A stretch of DNA of 64,000 nt from a virus (lineage: Duplodnaviria; Heunggongvirae; Uroviricota; Caudoviricetes), in IMG/VR virus record IMGVR_UViG_3300045988_005640; one strand, given 5' to 3'. Positions 6,424 through 9,791 of this stretch are shown one piece after another. Made by a program: the position numbers and the translations under genes. Every line of letters begins with the position of its first letter. Position 1 is the stretch's first letter. The notes under the pieces were generated by a model that did no database searches, was not told the origin of the DNA, and saw only the letters and a list, made by a program, of their open reading frames with translations.

Positions 6424-6765
6424 ATGAAGAAAGGTTCAGTAGGTGAAATTGCTACACAATTAGCTTTCCTCAAAAGAGGTTATGAAGTGTATTCACCAGC
6501 TACAGATAATGCAAAGTATGACTTTCTAGTTCACAAAGATGGTTTGATTGAGACTGTTGAGGTAAAATCAACATCAGTCAAAAGAGGTGAACTTTGGAGA
6601 GTGCAACTGAAAAGAGTTCATTCTAACAAGAATGAAAATAGAATAATGAATTTTGATAACTCTCAAGTTGATTACTTAGCTGTTTACATTGAACCACTTG
6701 ATAAAGTCATCATCTACAAAGCTAAAGATATCAAGTCTAAGACTGAACTTAGCTTAAAGATTTAA
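6424..6765 (+). CDS. PD-(D/E)xK nuclease, Holliday-junction-resolvase (Hjc)-like
   Basis: Track ORF 6244..6765 trimmed to the ATG at 6424 (RBS AAGG at 6412), because the upstream part overlaps tRNA-Trp-like and tRNA-Ser. Motifs GSVGE..LKRGYEVY, D-FLV, and ETVEVKST match the Hjc-type D...E-x-K core. Confidence 0.5.
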   Translation: MKKGSVGEIATQLAFLKRGYEVYSPATDNAKYDFLVHKDGLIETVEVKSTSVKRGELWRVQLKRVHSNKNENRIMNFDNSQVDYLAVYIEPLDKVIIYKAKDIKSKTELSLKI

Positions 6766-6906
6766 TACACCGTCCATGCTTGCTCGCATTTTCGGTTTAT
6801 CCCTCGTGTATTGTCGTACACACTGATAAAGCACCTAGTAGGTGTCACGGAGAAGAGATAATATCAAGCTCTCCAAAGGTTCTAGTCACCGGATTAAACA
6901 AGACTA

Positions 6907-6930
6907 TGCAAAGACCTTTTTAGGTCTTTT
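6907..6930 (+). terminator. hairpin AAAGACC-TTTTTA-GGTCTTT followed by T-run
   Basis: 7-bp stem plus T-rich tail, downstream of the nuclease ORF. Confidence 0.4.
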
Positions 6931-7010
6931 TAGAGGGCTTCTAAGGTTATTACGGCTTGTTGTGGAACCTTGTTGCTTAGGTTCTTAGAAGTTCTCTAAA
7001 AAGATTTAAT

Positions 7011-7088
7011 GGGAGATTGACGGTAATTGGTAAACCTATCTCGCTTAGAACGAGATGTTTGAGGGTTCGAATCCCTTGTCTCCTACCA
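7011..7088 (+). tRNA. tRNA-Leu (anticodon TAG), short variable loop (class-I-like)
   Basis: Acceptor GGGAGAT/GTCTCCT, anticodon stem TCTCG/CGAGA (perfect) with loop CTTAGAA, 5-nt variable loop, T-arm GAGGG-TTCGAAT-CCCTT, discriminator A, CCA encoded. Confidence 0.6.
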
Positions 7089-7095
7089 AATTAAT

Positions 7096-7171
7096 GCAGG
7101 TGTAGCAAAATGGTTATGCGGCTGACTCTTAATCAGTAAGACGATGGGTTCAATTCCCTCCACCTGTACCA
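7096..7171 (+). tRNA. tRNA-Lys (anticodon CTT)
   Basis: Acceptor GCAGGTG/CACCTGT, anticodon stem GCTGA/TCAGT with loop CTCTTAA, T-loop TTCAATT, CCA encoded; same 3-pair T-stem as the TTT isoacceptor. Confidence 0.6.
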
Positions 7172-7176
7172 AAAAT

Positions 7177-7252
7177 GGGGTCATAGTTTATATGGTTAAA
7201 ATTCGAGTTTTGCAAACTTGGGAACTGAGTTCAATTCTCAGTGACTCCACCA
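7177..7252 (+). tRNA. tRNA-Ala (anticodon TGC)
   Basis: Acceptor GGGGTCA/TGACTCC, D-stem GTTT/AAAT, anticodon stem CGAGT/ACTTG with loop TTTGCAA, T-arm CTGAG-TTCAATT-CTCAG, CCA encoded. Confidence 0.7.
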
Positions 7253-7258
7253 ATTAGT

Positions 7259-7333
7259 GCATCCATAGTTTAAACGGGAAAATTACAGTCTTCCAAACTG
7301 AGGTTGAGGGTTCGATTCCCTCTGGATGCTCCA
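7259..7333 (+). tRNA. tRNA-Gly (anticodon TCC)
   Basis: Acceptor GCATCCA/TGGATGC (perfect), anticodon loop CTTCCAA, T-arm GAGGG-TTCGATT-CCCTC, CCA encoded. Confidence 0.75.
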
Positions 7334-7340
7334 AATTAAT

Positions 7341-7416
7341 GCTCCTATCGTATAATTGGCTATTACGGTTGCCTTGTAAGCAACTTATCAGGGTTCGAAT
7401 CCTTGTGGGAGCACCA
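7341..7416 (+). tRNA. tRNA-Thr (anticodon TGT)
   Basis: Acceptor GCTCCTA/TGGGAGC, anticodon stem GTTGC/GCAAC (perfect) with loop CTTGTAA, T-loop TTCGAAT, CCA encoded. Confidence 0.7.
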
Positions 7417-7417
7417 A

Positions 7418-7511
7418 TTCAGAGGTCAAGTGAAAGACCGCTGGTGTCAACTGAAGACCGTAACAAATTCCACGGAGTTGAGTTAGCGGCACAACTTCAG
7501 ACCTCTTTCAC
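7418..7511 (+). other. stem-enclosed non-coding element containing an A-box-like motif (CTGAAGACCGTAAC)
   Basis: 7-bp stem AGAGGTC (7421-7427) with GACCTCT (7500-7506); internal pairs CTGAAG/CTTCAG; no T-loop, no ORF. Confidence 0.35.
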
Positions 7512-7586
7512 ACTCGCTTAGTTTATATGGTAAAACATCACCCTTACAAGATGAAGAAAAAGGTTCAAGTCCTTTAGTGAGTACCA
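7512..7586 (+). tRNA. tRNA-Val (anticodon TAC)
   Basis: Acceptor ACTCGCT/AGTGAGT, D-stem GTTT/AAAC, anticodon loop CTTACAA, T-arm AAAGG-TTCAAGT-CCTTT, CCA encoded. Confidence 0.65.
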
Positions 7587-7587
7587 T

Positions 7588-7665
7588 GTTCCAGTATCCC
7601 AATTGGCAGAGGATGCAAGCTCAAACCTTGTATTAGTGACGGTTCGAATCCGTCTTGGAACACCA
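7588..7665 (+). tRNA. tRNA-Leu (anticodon CAA), short variable loop (class-I-like)
   Basis: Acceptor GTTCCAG/TTGGAAC, anticodon stem GCAAG/CTTGT with loop CTCAAAC, 6-nt variable loop, T-arm GACGG-TTCGAAT-CCGTC, discriminator A, CCA encoded. Confidence 0.6.
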
Positions 7666-7681
7666 ATTTTAGGAGAACACT

Positions 7682-7789
7682 ATGAGCAATAAGTCAATTG
7701 CAAAAAAGTTTAGAGCGTCATACCTAAACAGACGTAAAAACAAAGTTTGTGAAAAACTGTATGGTGTTCTCGTAGGTAAGCAGGATTAG
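7682..7789 (+). CDS. hypothetical small basic protein (35 aa); may be spurious
   Basis: ATG at 7682 preceded by AGGAG (7671-7675); the last 10 nt overlap the 5' end of tRNA-Arg(ACG). Confidence 0.25.
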   Translation: MSNKSIAKKFRASYLNRRKNKVCEKLYGVLVGKQD

Positions 7790-7855
7790 TTCAAATGGAT
7801 AGAGCAACAGTCTACGAAGCTGTTAATAGGGGTTCGAATCCCTTATCCTGCACCA
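7780..7855 (+). tRNA. tRNA-Arg (anticodon ACG)
   Basis: Acceptor GCAGGAT/ATCCTGC (perfect), D-stem GTTC/GAGC, anticodon stem ACAGT/GCTGT with loop CTACGAA, T-loop TTCGAAT, CCA encoded. Confidence 0.75.
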
Positions 7856-7874
7856 ATTTAAAGAGGCTATTTAG

Positions 7875-8432
7875 ATGAGATATTTGAAGTATGCTTCATG
7901 GATTTTCTTAGCTTTGTTAGAGCCATTTGCAGCAATCTTAGCAGTTATCTTAGCACCTTTTGTAGTTCCATTCTACAGTGAGAAGAAAGGACACTTACCT
8001 TTCGGGTTCAGATGGATGGAGACATATGACAACCCAATTGATGGTGATGAAGGTCACGTTAAAAGATGGGCTAATATCAGATGGATTGGTAAACTAGGTG
8101 TCTACATGCAAAGAGTCGGATGGCTCTGGAGAAACAAAGCTTATAACTTCTCTTACCATGTATTAGGAAGAGATGTAAAAGATGTTACTAAGTGGAAAGG
8201 TAATATCAACGTAAGTTCTGACCCTGAAGATAATCAGACAGGTTATCTACTAATGTGGAACAGTAATGCTTGGGGATTATTCGCTTTTATCCCATCAATT
8301 AAAATCTTTGGTAAACAATTTTACTGGAGAATTTATATTGGATGGAAACTAAAAAGTGTTGTCCCAGAAGAAAGAGCATTCTCAAGGGAAAGAGTTATGT
8401 TGGCATTCTTTATTCATCCACTGAGAAAGTAA
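7875..8432 (+). CDS. hypothetical membrane protein
   Basis: 185-aa ORF with hydrophobic N-terminus (WIFLALLEPFAAILAVILAPFVVPF); sits inside the tRNA array. Confidence 0.55.
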   Translation: MRYLKYASWIFLALLEPFAAILAVILAPFVVPFYSEKKGHLPFGFRWMETYDNPIDGDEGHVKRWANIRWIGKLGVYMQRVGWLWRNKAYNFSYHVLGRDVKDVTKWKGNINVSSDPEDNQTGYLLMWNSNAWGLFAFIPSIKIFGKQFYWRIYIGWKLKSVVPEERAFSRERVMLAFFIHPLRK

Positions 8433-8440
8433 AGATTTAA

Positions 8441-8515
8441 AGGGGATTAGTTTACAAGGTTAAAACCTCGGTCTTTGAAATCGAAGAAGTTGGTTCAATT
8501 CCAACATCCCCGCCA
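8441..8515 (+). tRNA. tRNA-Gln (anticodon TTG)
   Basis: D-stem GTTT/AAAC, anticodon stem TCGGT/ATCGA with loop CTTTGAA, T-arm GTTGG-TTCAATT-CCAAC; acceptor AGGGGAT/ATCCCCG has an A1.G72 mismatch and the 3' end reads CCA without a clear discriminator. Confidence 0.55.
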
Positions 8516-8517
8516 AT

Positions 8518-8596
8518 GCTCCATTACTCCAATTGGCAGAGAGGCCAGACTTAAAATCTGTGTTATGTATCGGTTCGAATCCGATATGGAGTACCA
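8518..8596 (+). tRNA. tRNA-Leu (anticodon TAA), short variable loop (7 nt)
   Basis: Acceptor GCTCCAT/ATGGAGT, anticodon loop CTTAAAA, T-arm ATCGG-TTCGAAT-CCGAT, discriminator A, CCA encoded. Confidence 0.55.
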
Positions 8597-8601
8597 AATT
8601 T

Positions 8602-8677
8602 AGCGGCATAGCATAACTGGCAATGCAGCAGTCTCTGAAGCTGTCTTATTAAGGTTCAAATCCTTATGCCGCTGCCA
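8602..8677 (+). tRNA. tRNA-Gln (anticodon CTG)
   Basis: Acceptor AGCGGCA/TGCCGCT (perfect), D-stem GCAT/ATGC, anticodon stem GCAGT/GCTGT with loop CTCTGAA, T-arm TAAGG-TTCAAAT-CCTTA, CCA encoded. Confidence 0.7.
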
Positions 8678-8680
8678 CTT

Positions 8681-8706
8681 CTAAGGATTCTTACGAGAGT
8701 CCTTAA
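8681..8706 (+). other. conserved hairpin, copy 2 (stem TAAGGA/TCCTTA, loop TTCTTACGAGAG)
   Basis: Same loop motif as 5124-5136; begins 4 nt after the CCA of tRNA-Gln(CTG). Confidence 0.5.
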
Positions 8707-8708
8707 AT

Positions 8709-8784
8709 GTGGCCTTATCATAAACGGTAATGACCCATGCTGTGAACATGGTCTATACGGGTTCAAATCCCGTAGGTCACCCCA
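8709..8784 (+). tRNA. tRNA-His (anticodon GTG)
   Basis: Acceptor GTGGCCT/AGGTCAC, D-stem TCAT/ATGA, anticodon stem CCATG/CATGG (perfect) with loop CTGTGAA, T-arm ACGGG-TTCAAAT-CCCGT, CCA encoded. Confidence 0.75.
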
Positions 8785-8789
8785 ATTTA

Positions 8790-8866
8790 TAGTCCAAGTA
8801 GCTTATATGGTTAAAGCGCGTGTCTGAAAAACATGAGAAGAGGGTTCAAATCCCACTGGACTACCA
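8790..8866 (+). tRNA. tRNA-Phe (anticodon GAA), acceptor register uncertain
   Basis: D-stem GCTT/AAGC, anticodon stem CGTGT/ACATG with loop CTGAAAA, T-loop TTCAAAT; the acceptor pairs as TAGTCCA/TGGACTA but the 8-9 spacing is off by one. Confidence 0.5.
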
Positions 8867-9178
8867 ATTTCAAAGGTGCTTAATGAAAGAGATGACAGAA
8901 CAAGGTAAGGAGATTTTCAATCTCTTAAAAACCGGTAAAGGGTTTTCTAACCCCTTATTACTGGTGCAGCAGTTCTCGGTGGAACCGTAGCTGCCTCTAC
9001 ATCACTTGTAAGCTCTATTAGCTCTGTATCAGACCCTACAGTAAAGGATAAGCTTGTTGCTGCTGGACTTACAACAGTTCTGCTTAACAGCTTTACCACG
9101 AGTCTGACAAGCACTACATCAACTACCAAAACACTAACAGATTACGGTCAAAAATCCATTGATGAGTTTTCATCACGT

Positions 9179-9616
9179 ATGCAGGTAGCAAAAGGTTATT
9201 CTAATGTTATGGGTGCAGCAGGTGAACAAGTTGGCTGTACACCATTTAGTGGTATTATGGGTGTTGCTACAGAGTATGGTCAAAAAGCTATTGATACGAT
9301 TAACAGTGCACTAGATAGTGTTAATGGTGTGTTAAGTGACTTACAAGATGCTATTGACAAAGGTCTTGATACTATTTCTGATTTAGCTGAGCAAGCTGTT
9401 AGTAAGATTAATGAAGGTATTTCAAAAATTACAGCTTATGCAGATGAAGTTGTGCAGATGATTGAAGAAGAAGCTGCTCTTATTGCAGAGTACCTTAAAA
9501 CGAATATCAATGGGTTCTTAGCAGGTATCTTACCAGACTGGTTTGATGATGCTTGTAAAACTGGTGTAATTGACACTATTGCAACACCAGAAATGAAGAA
9601 CGCATTACAGAAATAA
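9179..9616 (+). CDS. hypothetical protein (possibly N-terminally extended)
   Basis: 145-aa ORF from the first ATG; the same frame is open from 8951 without a canonical start, and a 35-aa ORF with a good RBS (ATG 8883) lies upstream in another frame. Confidence 0.45.
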   Translation: MQVAKGYSNVMGAAGEQVGCTPFSGIMGVATEYGQKAIDTINSALDSVNGVLSDLQDAIDKGLDTISDLAEQAVSKINEGISKITAYADEVVQMIEEEAALIAEYLKTNINGFLAGILPDWFDDACKTGVIDTIATPEMKNALQK

Positions 9617-9618
9617 AT

Positions 9619-9711
9619 GGAAGATTAACCCTAAAAGGTAAGGGAGCAGTTTGCTAAACTGCCAGTAGCTGAGAAATCGGTGTACCAGTTCAAGTCTGGT
9701 ATCTTCCTCCA
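9619..9711 (+). tRNA. tRNA-Ser (anticodon GCT), class II
   Basis: Acceptor GGAAGAT/ATCTTCC (perfect), D-stem CCC/GGG, anticodon stem GCAGT/ACTGC with loop TTGCTAA, 21-nt variable arm, T-arm ACCAG-TTCAAGT-CTGGT, CCA encoded. Confidence 0.7.
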
Positions 9712-9715
9712 ATTT

Positions 9716-9791
9716 GAATCCGTGACAGAAATGGCTATGTGCCTGTCTGCAAAACAGGTTTATAAGGGTTCGAGTCCCTTCGGATTCTCCA
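9716..9791 (+). tRNA. tRNA-Cys (anticodon GCA)
   Basis: Acceptor GAATCCG/CGGATTC (perfect), anticodon stem CCTGT/ACAGG with loop CTGCAAA, T-arm AAGGG-TTCGAGT-CCCTT, CCA encoded. Confidence 0.75.

Follow-up and report, generated by a model that had tools for sequence, protein, structure and literature searches.

Textbooks and recent papers on LeuRS alike describe bacterial cytoplasmic tRNA-Leu as a long-armed molecule, and the E. coli enzyme as one which charges that type only. A phage which infects E. coli and whose tRNA-Leu genes have no such arm raises the question of whether these genes encode leucine tRNAs at all and, if so, which enzyme would charge them. The stretch of DNA analysed here (the window, 64 kb) is that of a Felix O1-like myovirus, a phage of E. 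coli/Salmonella, and ARAGORN places 26 tRNA genes in it at 4419–9791, all on the + strand. An original prediction, made from the sequence, had described three tRNA-Leu genes in this array with variable loops of 5–7 nt and discriminator A73, alongside Tyr and Ser genes which keep long arms. ARAGORN, Rfam and a hand parse anchored on the structure reproduce the coordinates and the short loops, and the structure parse bears out both A73 in all three genes and the long arms of the Tyr and both Ser genes. The features are as follows.

7011..7088, + strand: tRNA-Leu(UAG), class I, 75 nt + CCA, G1.U72, A73 (ARAGORN, Rfam, structure parse)
7046..7048, + strand: Leu(UAG) anticodon TAG, loop CTTAGAA (ARAGORN, structure parse)
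7056..7060, + strand: Leu(UAG) variable loop TGTTT, 5 nt, U48 last (structure parse)
7588..7665, + strand: tRNA-Leu(CAA), class I, 75 nt + CCA, A73 (ARAGORN, Rfam, structure parse)
7622..7624, + strand: Leu(CAA) anticodon CAA, loop CTCAAAC (structure parse)
7632..7637, + strand: Leu(CAA) variable loop ATTAGT, 6 nt, U48 last (structure parse)
8518..8596, + strand: tRNA-Leu(UAA), class I, 76 nt + CCA, G1.U72, A73 (ARAGORN, Rfam, structure parse)
8552..8554, + strand: Leu(UAA) anticodon TAA, loop CTTAAAA (structure parse)
8562..8568, + strand: Leu(UAA) variable loop GTTATGT, 7 nt, U48 last (structure parse)
4917..5004, + strand: tRNA-Tyr(GUA), internal control, 15-nt variable arm (ARAGORN, structure parse)
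6314..6400, + strand: tRNA-Ser(UGA), internal control, 16-nt variable arm (ARAGORN, structure parse)
9619..9711, + strand: tRNA-Ser(GCU), internal control, 21-nt variable arm (ARAGORN, structure parse)

Three compact cloverleaves

The ARAGORN coordinates of the Leu genes count in the encoded CCA, without which the UAG, CAA and UAA genes are 75, 75 and 76 nt long. Their scores on RF00005 are 44.5, 44.0 and 47.5 bits, respectively (E ~1e-7 to 1e-8), all above the curated Rfam gathering score of 29 bits, with every other class I tRNA in the array scoring higher. All three genes are clean cloverleaves, each having an acceptor stem in which all 7 bp are intact, A73, a CCA encoded in the gene and a T-loop of canonical form, and with variable loops of 5 (UAG), 6 (CAA) and 7 nt (UAA) in the structure-anchored parse. 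In two of the genes the D arm is of the Leu type, a 3-bp stem TCC/GGA enclosing the loop CAAUUGGCAGA in Leu(CAA) and a CUC/GAG stem enclosing CAAUUGGCAGA in Leu(UAA). The A36-A37-A38 motif (PMC4615657) is interrupted by C38 in Leu(CAA), and Leu(UAA) carries a C27.U43 mismatch.

Where class II is taken to mean a variable region of at least 10 nt which forms a stem-loop, none of the three genes belongs to it, their variable regions being 5–7 nt. Indeed, with 75–76 nt before the CCA, an arm of 10 nt or more cannot fit beside four normal stems. The notion that the gene finder or the original prediction overlooked a long arm, which would emerge on refolding, is thus excluded by the sequence, since three independent methods leave 5–7 nt between the anticodon and T stems and the RNAfold MFE folds of the three genes, searched for an extra hairpin, contain none.

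Leucine identity elements outside the variable arm

The known determinants of E. coli LeuRS are A73, A15-U48, G18G19, A20a and the tertiary pairs of the D and T loops, and neither the sequence nor the folding of the variable arm was correlated with leucylation, armless variants being still active (PMC9976931). Leu(CAA) and Leu(UAA) contain A73, U8, A14, A15, G18G19 four nucleotides into the loop, A20a, U48 and the T-loop TTCGAAT. Judged by sequence, therefore, the complete published E. coli LeuRS identity set is present in both. Within it, U8:A14 and A15:U48 lie in the standard register, and G18G19 occupies the Leu-specific position, with A20a, in a loop which reads C-AAUUGG-C-A-G-A. In Leu(UAG), U8:A14 and A15:U48 are present in the MAFFT, Rfam or bulged-stem register. 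The structure parse gives T54, T55, C56 and A58 in the T-loop TTCGAAT, together with a GG in the D loop, for all three genes, such that the D-loop/T-loop pairs G18:U55, G19:C56 and U54:A58 would be expected to form in each of them.

This set of features discriminates well. Six elements of the Leu set occur together in 209/262 class I Leu and 141/168 class II Leu genes, as against 0/116 Ser, 1/55 Tyr and 5/1098 others; in other words, in 80–84% of Leu genes and in 0.5% of non-Leu genes across ~1,700 tRNAs. Published tRNAscan-SE 2.0 isotype scores for phage Sf14 point the same way, with Leu at 49.1 and the next isotype at 36.1 for the CAA gene, and 60.2 and 54.2, respectively, for the UAA gene (PMC12482277). 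The CAA gene of the window is identical to that of Sf14 and the UAA gene differs from it by 1 nt, so that the comparison with isotype models, which the original prediction had proposed as a check, places Leu first for these two. The UAG gene scored in Sf14 is a different one from that of the window.

Two classifiers were also applied. An all-position naive Bayes classifier (stems included; class II Leu used for training without regard to the arm) called Leu for 0/3 genes, its top calls being Pro, Arg and Glu; the Leu genes from which it learned were a narrow set, for the most part of the UAA kind and drawn in by one pattern, and the stems dominated the score. A core-feature classifier, trained on class II Leu and 19 other isotypes with the stems, the anticodon loop and the arm length left out, called Leu for all three genes and placed Leu 17th–20th of 20 for 22 of the 23 other tRNAs in the window. 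The latter was devised after the all-position result was known and is to be weighted accordingly.

A recurrent family of compact tRNA-Leu

By alignment, compact tRNA-Leu is a real and covarying family, found in phages and in actinobacteria. Other members of the Ounavirinae and T5-like coliphages have genes of this type, and so, among the matches listed in two scans of sequence collections with the class I pattern (at least 120 matches each, ca 30 of which are class II genes with GTTC in the arm), do diverse viral contigs and Actinomycetota chromosomes, many of the last having tRNA-Leu(UAA/CAA) genes of 74–77 nt. When 78 diverse class I Leu genes are aligned, 98.3% of cells are paired, as against 61.5% in shuffles, with compensatory changes at 20/20 stem pairs, and U8:A14 and A15:U48 are invariant in all 78, the three window genes included. 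A covariance model of class I Leu, built from 73 independent genes, gives 75.5 bits for Leu(CAA), 73.5 bits for Leu(UAA) and 61.5 bits for Arg(UCU), which is the best non-Leu tRNA of the window; in Sf14, phiEa104 and DT571/2, the genes for class I Leu score 67–83 bits. The variable loop is of 5 nt in 209 of 262 family members (80%), 6 nt in 43, 7 nt in 8 and 4 nt in 2; of the window genes, UAG has the common 5 nt, CAA 6 and UAA 7, each with U48.

The statement that bacterial tRNA-Leu is class II, from which the original prediction started, holds for E. coli K-12, whose five species (leuV/P/Q, leuZ, leuW, leuX, leuU) are 85–87 nt long and class II, but not for the many Actinomycetota with compact Leu(UAA/CAA) genes. 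Similarly, the rarity which it implied for an armless tRNA-Leu was overstated for a type which recurs in phages and actinobacteria, although the type is indeed absent from the tRNA-Leu set of K-12. A class-neutral pattern, which covers UAA anticodons with an AATTGG D loop alone, returned compact Leu in 5/92 genes overall and in 4/33 of those in tRNA-rich loci, a narrow frequency of ~5–12% drawn from 4–5 genes.

The actinobacterial genes, including the type I Leu(CAA) of Streptomyces coelicolor, have the same sequence signature as Leu(CAA) and Leu(UAA) of the window, namely a variable loop of the 5-nt type, a 3-bp D stem, an unpaired 13:22, the D loop C-AAYUGG-C-AGA, A15:U48 and A73, and the D arm CCCAAYUGGCAGAGG is common to both groups. 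They differ in loop length (5 nt, as against 6 in CAA and 7 in UAA) and in setting, being chromosomal genes which the host LeuRS is shown or presumed to accept, whereas those of the window are phage genes in an enterobacterial host whose own tRNA-Leu are all class II. These host genes (leuZ, leuX, leuW, leuU, leuQPV) resemble those of the phage in their anticodons UAA, CAA and UAG, in A73 and U48, in G1.U72 (leuZ and leuU) and in the D loop AAUUGG-Y-AGA with A20a, but have variable arms of 13–17 nt and G13/U20 where the phage has C13/C20. On the class I Leu model the E. coli genes reach 48–61.5 bits, compared to 73.5–75.5 for phage CAA and UAA, and their overall similarity to the phage genes is below blastn detection. 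Indeed, a blastn search (word 11) of 5,426 E. coli genomes for a source of Leu(CAA) gave no match.

Within the phages, conservation is tight. Leu(UAA) reaches an identity of at least 99% in 216/273 phage records and Leu(CAA) in 160/303, the latter with 100% identity in each of Sf14, Moogle, SUSP2 and Felix O1. Of the 310 records which match the surrounding 1.8 kb, nearly all do so at 90–99% identity (95–99% in 188, 90–95% in 119). Between genera, CAA is 100% and UAA 98.7% identical, with the whole array ranging from 55% to 100%. Compact genes, tightly conserved, are the only tRNA-Leu genes carried by hundreds of sequenced phages which infect E. coli, Salmonella, Shigella and Citrobacter (the Felix O1-like phages and many of the T5-like ones), and our searches of the literature gave no account of this type from phages.

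Probable charging by the host enzyme

The reading which best fits these observations is that the three genes encode functional, compact (class I or type I) phage leucine tRNAs, which are probably charged by the host LeuRS and used in translation. This was one of the two possibilities put forward in the original prediction, and it is favoured by the full determinants of CAA and UAA, by their high conservation and by the coding content of the phage, since a LeuRS sought among the ten largest ORFs of the 64-kb window (genome ~87 kb) was not found there, all ten matching other families; the assignment of UAG is the weaker part. From their sequences, all three tRNAs are most likely charged with leucine by the host enzyme to read UUA, UUG and CUA. 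In such a mechanism the Leu tRNAs would be transcribed after infection within the 26-gene array, the host LeuRS would add leucine to the 3' CCA already encoded in the genes, the UAA and CAA anticodons would decode UUA/UUG and UAG would decode CUA/CUN. These codons are common, and indeed enriched, in the phage and are served in the host by single-copy minor tRNAs. In this regard, the GC content of the phage is 39%, and the shares of the Leu codons in the window are 27.5% for TTA, 13.3% for TTG and 11.2% for CTA, with CTG at just 14.5%. In phage Sf14 the RSCU of TTA and CTA is significantly above that of the host (PMC12482277).

Precedents for an armless tRNA-Leu exist elsewhere. Engineered armless E. 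coli tRNA-Leu (Asahara 1993/1998; Larkin 2002; the TrmL 'VLAD' variant) established that E. coli LeuRS and TrmL can act on a tRNA which has lost the arm (reviewed in PMC9976931 and PMC4615657); these variants were built in the laboratory from E. coli tRNA, whereas the phage genes occur in nature and differ in their stems. Animal mitochondrial tRNA-Leu, compared here through the literature alone, is also armless, with its identity resting on A73 and A14 (PMC9976931), but belongs to another lineage with a dedicated mitochondrial LeuRS. The Streptomyces type I tRNA-Leu has been leucylated experimentally by its own LeuRS, whereas E. coli LeuRS, described as acting on type II only, failed in vitro to charge a transcript of the type I tRNA-Leu(CAA) from S. 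coelicolor (PMC6614811). For Aquifex tRNA-Leu, affinity fell on removal of the arm (PMC2377443).

Points which speak against charging by the host enzyme are this failure of E. coli LeuRS on the Streptomyces tRNA and the effect of arm removal in Aquifex. To these may be added the 0/3 result of the all-position classifier, the irregularity of the UAG gene and the 6- and 7-nt loops of CAA and UAA.

Should the tRNAs be charged, as the evidence suggests, they would be natural proof that an enterobacterial LeuRS accepts class I tRNA-Leu, and ready substrates for finding out why the Streptomyces type I tRNA fails. A clean rule for arm loss in phage tRNA sets would also follow, that it affects Leu and never Ser or Tyr. 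This pattern may be ascribed to LeuRS being the sole synthetase of class II tRNAs which is able to dispense with the arm.

A possible link of arm loss to host defence

An addition to leucine charging by the host, rather than a replacement for it, is that loss of the arm is an adaptation against host defence and goes beyond a tolerated simplification, which we regard as unlikely. The variable arm of class II tRNAs is a site of recognition or cleavage for several toxins and anti-phage systems, and an armless tRNA-Leu would sustain translation while that of the host is under attack. MenT3 anchors on the variable arm of tRNA-Ser (PMC11541572), and the abortive-infection toxin AbiEii seems to favour class II tRNAs (bioRxiv 10.64898/2026.01.19.700257). 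Compact Leu also recurs in unrelated phage lineages, the Leu(UAG) slot has been repeatedly replaced, each time by class I genes, and the type is commoner in tRNA-rich loci (4/33, as against 5/92 overall), albeit on very small counts. Conversely, our literature searches gave no E. coli or Salmonella system aimed at the arm of tRNA-Leu, class I tRNA-Leu is an ordinary chromosomal gene in many Actinomycetota with no context of phage defence, and T5 itself copes with a class II Leu gene. The fuller version of the idea, in which armless Leu genes have spread horizontally among phages, coliphages with hosts of exclusively long-armed tRNA-Leu included, as they go unseen by nucleases and nucleotidyltransferases which dock on or cut the class II arm, is one we hold to be quite improbable. 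Were defence the reason for arm loss, Leu would be the sole class II tRNA open to it, LeuRS alone not needing the arm, and a testable link would be made to the growing list of defence systems which attack variable arms. Models for such systems are Septu and retron-Eco7, which act on tRNA-Tyr, and toxins of the MenT/AbiEii type, which act on class II tRNAs.

The irregular UAG gene

Leu(UAG) is the least regular of the three genes, and its assignment to Leu, as far as its sequence suggests one, is weaker than that of CAA and UAA. Its D region is of 20 nt (TGACGGTAATTGGTAAACCT), with one extra nucleotide, which sits between the acceptor and D stems, and with a D stem mismatched at C.C or C.U. It contains the motif AAUUGG-U-A-A, in a register which varies with the assumed fold; in a fixed register, A14 and the position of G18G19 fail unless a bulge is allowed and the D stem shifted in register. 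On the class I Leu covariance model the gene scores 59.1 bits, between Arg(UCU) at 61.5 and Glu at 57.3. By identity it is nearest to the class I Leu(UAG) of the T5-like phage DT571/2, at 0.79, with the best non-Leu tRNA at 0.75. A sequence identical to it is annotated as tRNA-OTHER in NBSal004, which exemplifies how isotype models derived from long-armed Leu can mislabel compact genes.

The T5-like class I Leu(UAG) genes (DT571/2, Tequintavirus; Salmonella Demerecviridae), at 79% identity the closest relatives of the window gene, share with it an identical T arm GAGGGTTCGAATCCCTT, the D region TGAYGG.AATTGG, a 5-nt loop ending in TTT and the same hosts. They differ from it in their D region, which is regular, 19 nt long and has its 3-bp stem paired; in the window gene a U is inserted and G24 is replaced by C. 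In T5-like coliphages such as DT571/2 a 77-nt Leu(UAG) occupies the slot of the 85-nt class II gene of T5. An origin of the former by deletion from the latter was considered and rejected, as the two sequences are unrelated outside the conserved tRNA positions, and gene replacement is therefore indicated.

Across Ounavirinae at least three different alleles or genes occupy the UAG slot. Two of the alleles differ in the entire anticodon stem (TCTCG/CGAGA in one, CCATC/GTTGG in the other) and are otherwise identical; the stem of the window allele is a perfect 5-bp helix, and that of the other has 4 pairs and the U.U mismatch typical of its lineage. Alleles which differ only in the anticodon stem, with pairing kept, point to selection on structure. 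The MFE fold, with a 7-bp anticodon stem and a 3-nt variable loop, was set aside, its two extra pairs being unconserved in the T5-like relatives, and the 5-bp stem was kept.

It might be argued from these irregularities that one or more of the Leu genes, most plausibly UAG, is no working translational tRNA and is instead a pseudogene in decay, a decoy which draws off enzymes directed at tRNAs or an RNA of some other role. The extra nucleotide and mismatched D stem, the tRNA-OTHER label in some records, a family score which overlaps those of non-Leu tRNAs, the multiple occupants of the slot and the bottom rank of the three genes on RF00005 are all consistent with this. We nevertheless consider it improbable, since CAA and UAA rank with the best-conserved genes of the array, the exchange of anticodon stems between the UAG alleles is itself a sign of selection on structure, and the intact acceptor stem, A73, CCA and T-loop are kept in all three genes.

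Probable decoding as leucine

The second possibility in the original prediction, an identity other than that implied by the anticodon, finds no support. It would have the three tRNAs charged with another amino acid, such that the phage partly recodes UUA, UUG and CUA. This is a formal possibility, suggested by a class I shape which is that of most non-Leu tRNAs and by the Pro, Arg and Glu calls of the all-position classifier, and we rate it as very improbable. The 3:70 pairs of the three genes are G-C, U-A and U-A, the G3:U70 of AlaRS identity being absent, as are the long arm and G73 which are features of SerRS recognition, and the other synthetases need anticodons which these tRNAs do not have (identity rules, PMC9976931). 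The Leu-specific core is present, the isotype models for the Sf14 genes give Leu, and the host tRNAs decode the same codons as Leu. Moreover, the conserved proteins of the phage place UUA, UUG and CUA at Leu or hydrophobic sites, and mischarging would therefore harm them: in phage NrdA, 12 of the 25 aligned sites with TTA, TTG or CTA are Leu in E. coli NrdA, and the remaining ones are mostly other hydrophobic residues (V, I, M, F).

Structure of the three leucine genes

The window belongs to a Felix O1-like myovirus, and the 1.8 kb around its leucine genes share 96-97% identity with Escherichia phage pinkbiff, Salmonella phage Felix O1 and ~300 other Ounavirinae records. ARAGORN finds 26 tRNA genes here, on the + strand, between 4419 and 9791. 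The three tRNA-Leu genes, referred to below by their anticodons (UAG, CAA and UAA), are called exactly where they had been predicted, all above the 29-bit threshold of the general Rfam tRNA model:

7011-7088, + strand, tRNA-Leu(tag): ARAGORN; Rfam 44.5 bits; variable region TGTTT, 5 nt
7588-7665, + strand, tRNA-Leu(caa): ARAGORN; Rfam 44.0 bits; variable region ATTAGT, 6 nt
8518-8596, + strand, tRNA-Leu(taa): ARAGORN; Rfam 47.5 bits; variable region GTTATGT, 7 nt

By structure-anchored parsing, the acceptor stem of each is 7 bp long, the discriminator is A73, CCA is encoded and the T arm is canonical; the parse agrees with the original prediction that all three combine A73 with a variable loop of 5-7 nt, and that the Tyr gene (15 nt) and both Ser genes (16 and 21 nt) of the same array are long-armed. 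The genes measure 75-76 nt before the CCA, such that a hidden long arm would not fit in any of them; nor is an extra arm seen in their MFE folds, so the suspicion that refolding might uncover an overlooked one falls away. Their Rfam scores are the lowest of the array's short-arm tRNAs. The E. coli K-12 tRNA-Leu genes (leuV/P/Q, leuZ, leuW, leuX and leuU, as fetched) are all 85-87 nt, which sets the compact (class I, or type I) phage genes apart in class from every host leucine tRNA. The G1.U72 wobble of the UAG and UAA genes is also found in leuZ and leuU.

Hundreds of records already list these genes as tRNA-Leu, and Streptomyces and mitochondria provide known cases of type I tRNA-Leu. The searchable literature yielded no statement that the arm is lacking in tRNA-Leu genes of phages, coliphages or others.

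Evidence for leucine identity

The determinants recognised by E. coli LeuRS are A73, A15:U48, G18G19 plus A20a in the D loop, and the tertiary pairs between D loop and T loop. The anticodon is not read, and the sequence and folding of the long arm are uncorrelated with activity, armless variants being still active (PMC9976931). In this regard, the CAA and UAA genes both have U48, A73 and a Leu-type D arm, in which the stem has 3 bp, 13:22 is unpaired and the loop is C-AAUUGG-C-AGA, where E. coli has G-AAUUGG-U-AGA. A census of ~1,700 distinct tRNAs drew on the window, on named phages, on viral contigs and on bacterial genomes; in it, the combination of A73, A14, A15, G18G19 in register, A20a and U48 occurs in 209 of 262 compact and 141 of 168 long-arm (class II, or type II) Leu genes, as against 0/116 Ser, 1/55 Tyr and 5/1,098 other tRNAs.

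A classifier restricted to the discriminator, D-loop architecture, tertiary positions, T-loop and 1:72 pair, with long-arm genes as its only Leu examples, ranks Leu first for the UAG, CAA and UAA genes alike and 17th-20th of 20 for 22 of the 23 remaining array tRNAs; cross-validation gave a Leu call for 6 of 1,236 non-Leu tRNAs. An earlier version including all stem positions called Leu for none of the three genes, and because the restricted design was chosen after that failure, its calls are supportive rather than decisive. The original prediction had allowed that isotype models might assign another amino acid. For the CAA and UAA genes, published tRNAscan-SE 2.0 scores point to leucine: Shigella phage Sf14 has an identical CAA gene and a UAA gene with 1 base different, for which Leu ranks first at 49.1 vs 36.1 and 60.2 vs 54.2, respectively (PMC12482277, a paper in which the variable arm is nowhere mentioned). 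Neither G3:U70 (AlaRS) nor G73 plus a long arm (SerRS) occurs in any of the three window genes.

Compact tRNA-Leu as a family

The compact form is a family and not a one-off in this window. By blastn, the UAA gene matches the full-length 77-nt tRNA-Leu(UAA) of Rhodococcus phage Dorin (82.5% identical) and, more weakly, genes of Aeromonas and Myxococcus phages, all 74-77 nt. A compact-Leu(YAA)-specific pattern finds at least 120 loci in IMG/VR, where, among the matches listed (120 loci), 167 of 210 Leu genes are compact. Anticodons outside the pattern follow suit in the same listed matches (UAG 32/40, GAG 8/9, CAG 4/5 compact), and the long arm is kept in Ser (94/96) and Tyr (36/40). With a class-neutral pattern, compact genes make up ~5% of viral tRNA-Leu(UAA) with that D loop, and ~12% in loci of at least five tRNAs (figures based on only 4-5 genes), which suggests that they are a minority.

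The same compact pattern, run on one-genome-per-species bacterial contigs, again finds at least 120 loci; those among the matches listed are mostly single chromosomal 74-77-nt tRNA-Leu(UAA/CAA) genes of Actinomycetota (Gordonia, Nocardia, Mycobacterium, Rhodococcus, Corynebacterium, Bifidobacterium and Arthrobacter relatives), with the same CCCAAYUGGCAGAGG D arm. These fit the reports that the type I tRNA-Leu(CAA) of Streptomyces coelicolor is charged by its own LeuRS (PMC6614811) and that only tRNA-Leu-2, 3 and 5 of M. tuberculosis have long loops (PMC11541572). A few listed bacterial contigs or MAGs contain 10-26 tRNAs in 8 kb with every Leu gene compact (for example an Acidobacteriota MAG, L256, with 25 tRNAs), and are probably phage or prophage arrays.

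When 78 diverse compact Leu genes are aligned, 98.3% of stem cells are paired (61.5% when shuffled, 33-46% with partners slid), the 100% of the acceptor stem not being independent since that stem was pre-filtered for pairing. Compensatory changes occur in 20 of 20 stem pairs, and U8:A14 and A15:U48 are invariant. A covariance model of 73 of these genes, leaving out the window genes and their closest relatives, scores the CAA gene at 75.5 bits, the UAA gene at 73.5 and the compact Leu genes of Sf14, phiEa104 and DT571/2 at 67-83, with the best non-Leu tRNA at 61.5 and E. coli long-arm Leu genes at 48-61.5.

The UAG gene and its slot

On the same model the UAG gene scores 59.1 bits, within the non-Leu range, and phage NBSal004 has an identical copy that carries the annotation tRNA-OTHER. 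Its D region, 20 nt (TGACGGTAATTGGTAAACCT), differs from the regular TGAYGG-AATTGG-NATAC-RT of T5-like Leu(UAG) by an inserted U and a G24-to-C change, so that the D stem must either contain a mismatch (C.C or C.U) or, in another register, have C11 bulged out. The gene closest to it, at 79% identity and with an identical T arm, is a 77-nt Leu(UAG) from DT571/2, a T5-like coliphage, and ~168 mostly T5-like records match this compact type at 60-80% identity. The DT571/2 gene (L362, 5997-6073) adjoins tRNA-Ala(UGC), and at the same position T5, likewise a Tequintavirus, has an unrelated gene, an 85-nt long-arm Leu(UAG) (L001, 11625-11709). In Ounavirinae the slot takes at least three forms, all three compact:

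Form 1: the window allele, anticodon stem TCTCG/CGAGA
Form 2: whole anticodon stem replaced by CCATC/GTTGG, remainder of the gene unchanged
Form 3 (Sf14): a quite different, regular compact Leu(UAG)

The stem of form 2, a Felixounavirus/Mooglevirus allele, has a U.U mismatch typical of the T5-like lineage. Since Sf14 has a different Leu(UAG), its published isotype score is inapplicable to the window UAG gene. The slot is a replacement hot spot (window, Sf14, DT571/2 and two further collected loci, L364 and L366), and the closeness of the window gene to those of T5-like phages suggests exchange between unrelated coliphage families.

Proposed charging and decoding

The three genes would be expressed along with the array and charged with leucine by the host LeuRS via A73 and elbow geometry, adding decoding capacity for UUA, UUG and CUA. 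The arm would be missing from Leu alone because LeuRS can do without it, as SerRS and bacterial TyrRS cannot; this independence is established identity knowledge (PMC9976931) and matches the isotype-specific pattern in the viral loci, where most Leu genes are compact and most Ser and Tyr genes long-armed, and in the tRNA census. We consider this account probable overall, most likely for the CAA and UAA genes and less so for UAG. Against it count the Streptomyces type I tRNA-Leu(CAA) transcript, which E. coli LeuRS did not charge (PMC6614811), and the reduced affinity on arm deletion in the Aquifex system (PMC2377443). Armless phage genes are at odds with the idea of an E. coli LeuRS that accepts long-arm tRNA-Leu only, and whether it charges the compact form is easily tested.

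Loss of the arm could also be an escape from defences acting on class II variable arms, given that Septu and retron-Eco7 cleave the tRNA-Tyr variable loop, MenT3 anchors on the tRNA-Ser arm (PMC11541572) and AbiEii seems to favour class II tRNAs (bioRxiv 10.64898/2026.01.19.700257); but the literature searched revealed no system aimed at the tRNA-Leu arm in enterobacteria, and compact Leu is also ordinary in actinobacterial chromosomes, making this a low-probability lead.

As regards the decoding role, the window (39% GC) uses TTA for 27.5% of leucines, TTG 13.3%, CTT 27.8%, CTC 5.7%, CTA 11.2% and CTG 14.5%; in Sf14, TTA and CTA usage is significantly higher than in the host (PMC12482277). 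In the host, the UAA, CAA and UAG species have one gene apiece and the CAG species has several. In NrdA, TTA/TTG/CTA codons of the phage face Leu of the E. coli protein at 12 of 25 positions and mostly other hydrophobic residues elsewhere, a match rate no lower, in these small numbers, than that of other Leu codons. The ten largest window ORFs (terminase, portal, tape measure, baseplate, tail fibre, DNA polymerase, primase-helicase, two ribonucleotide reductases and a DUF2828 protein) include no synthetase. The CAA gene is at least 99% identical in 160 of 303 records and the UAA gene in 216 of 273, and both are more conserved than their surroundings, where most matching records show 90-99% identity. 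Compared with Mooglevirus Sf14, the window CAA gene is 100% and the UAA gene 98.7% identical, with other array members at 55% to 100%.

Other features of the array

The CAA anticodon loop (7620-7626, CUCAAAC) has C38 in place of the A38 of E. coli tRNA-Leu(CAA), which breaks the A36-A37-A38 motif required for i6A37 and then TrmL methylation (PMC4615657); all three phage genes have C32 vs U32 in the host. tRNA-Glu(UUC) (4503-4580, +) resembles Leu in its D loop and core (A14, A15, G18G19 in register, A20a, U48) but has G73, not A73, and scores 57.3 bits on the compact-Leu model, near Leu(UAG). Directly upstream of Leu(UAG), a hairpin (6916-7010, +) gives a sub-threshold match to the plant microRNA family RF00778 (29.1 bits; gathering score 52), which is almost certainly coincidental, the hairpin being a terminator-like or processing one. 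Small ORFs lie between the tRNA genes at 7876-8433 (+), 185 codons, annotated in relatives as a hypothetical protein, and at 7683-7760 (+); in Felix O1 and some others the interval contains additional DNA, with annotated features including an HNH endonuclease. The ORF directly upstream of the array (2838-4253, +) has matches to both DUF2828 and DUF7788; its homologue in Sf14 carries the annotation RNA-binding protein, and the adjacency of the ORF to the array may be meaningful.

Between tRNA-Arg(UCU) and tRNA-Ser(UGA) lies a conserved tRNA-like element (6220-6294, +), called by neither ARAGORN nor Rfam at gathering score (17.8 bits on the compact-Leu model; 23 bits, E 0.066, on RF01852). It has an acceptor GGGACG/CGTCCC, a T arm GGGGTTCAACTCCTC and a stem AACGG/CCGTT closing a 9-nt loop, CCUCCAAAA, that includes CCA, the Trp anticodon; no tRNA-Trp is found in the window array. 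In Sf14 (L361, 2488-2563) the element is 94% identical, with a compensatory T-stem change of G..C to T..A.
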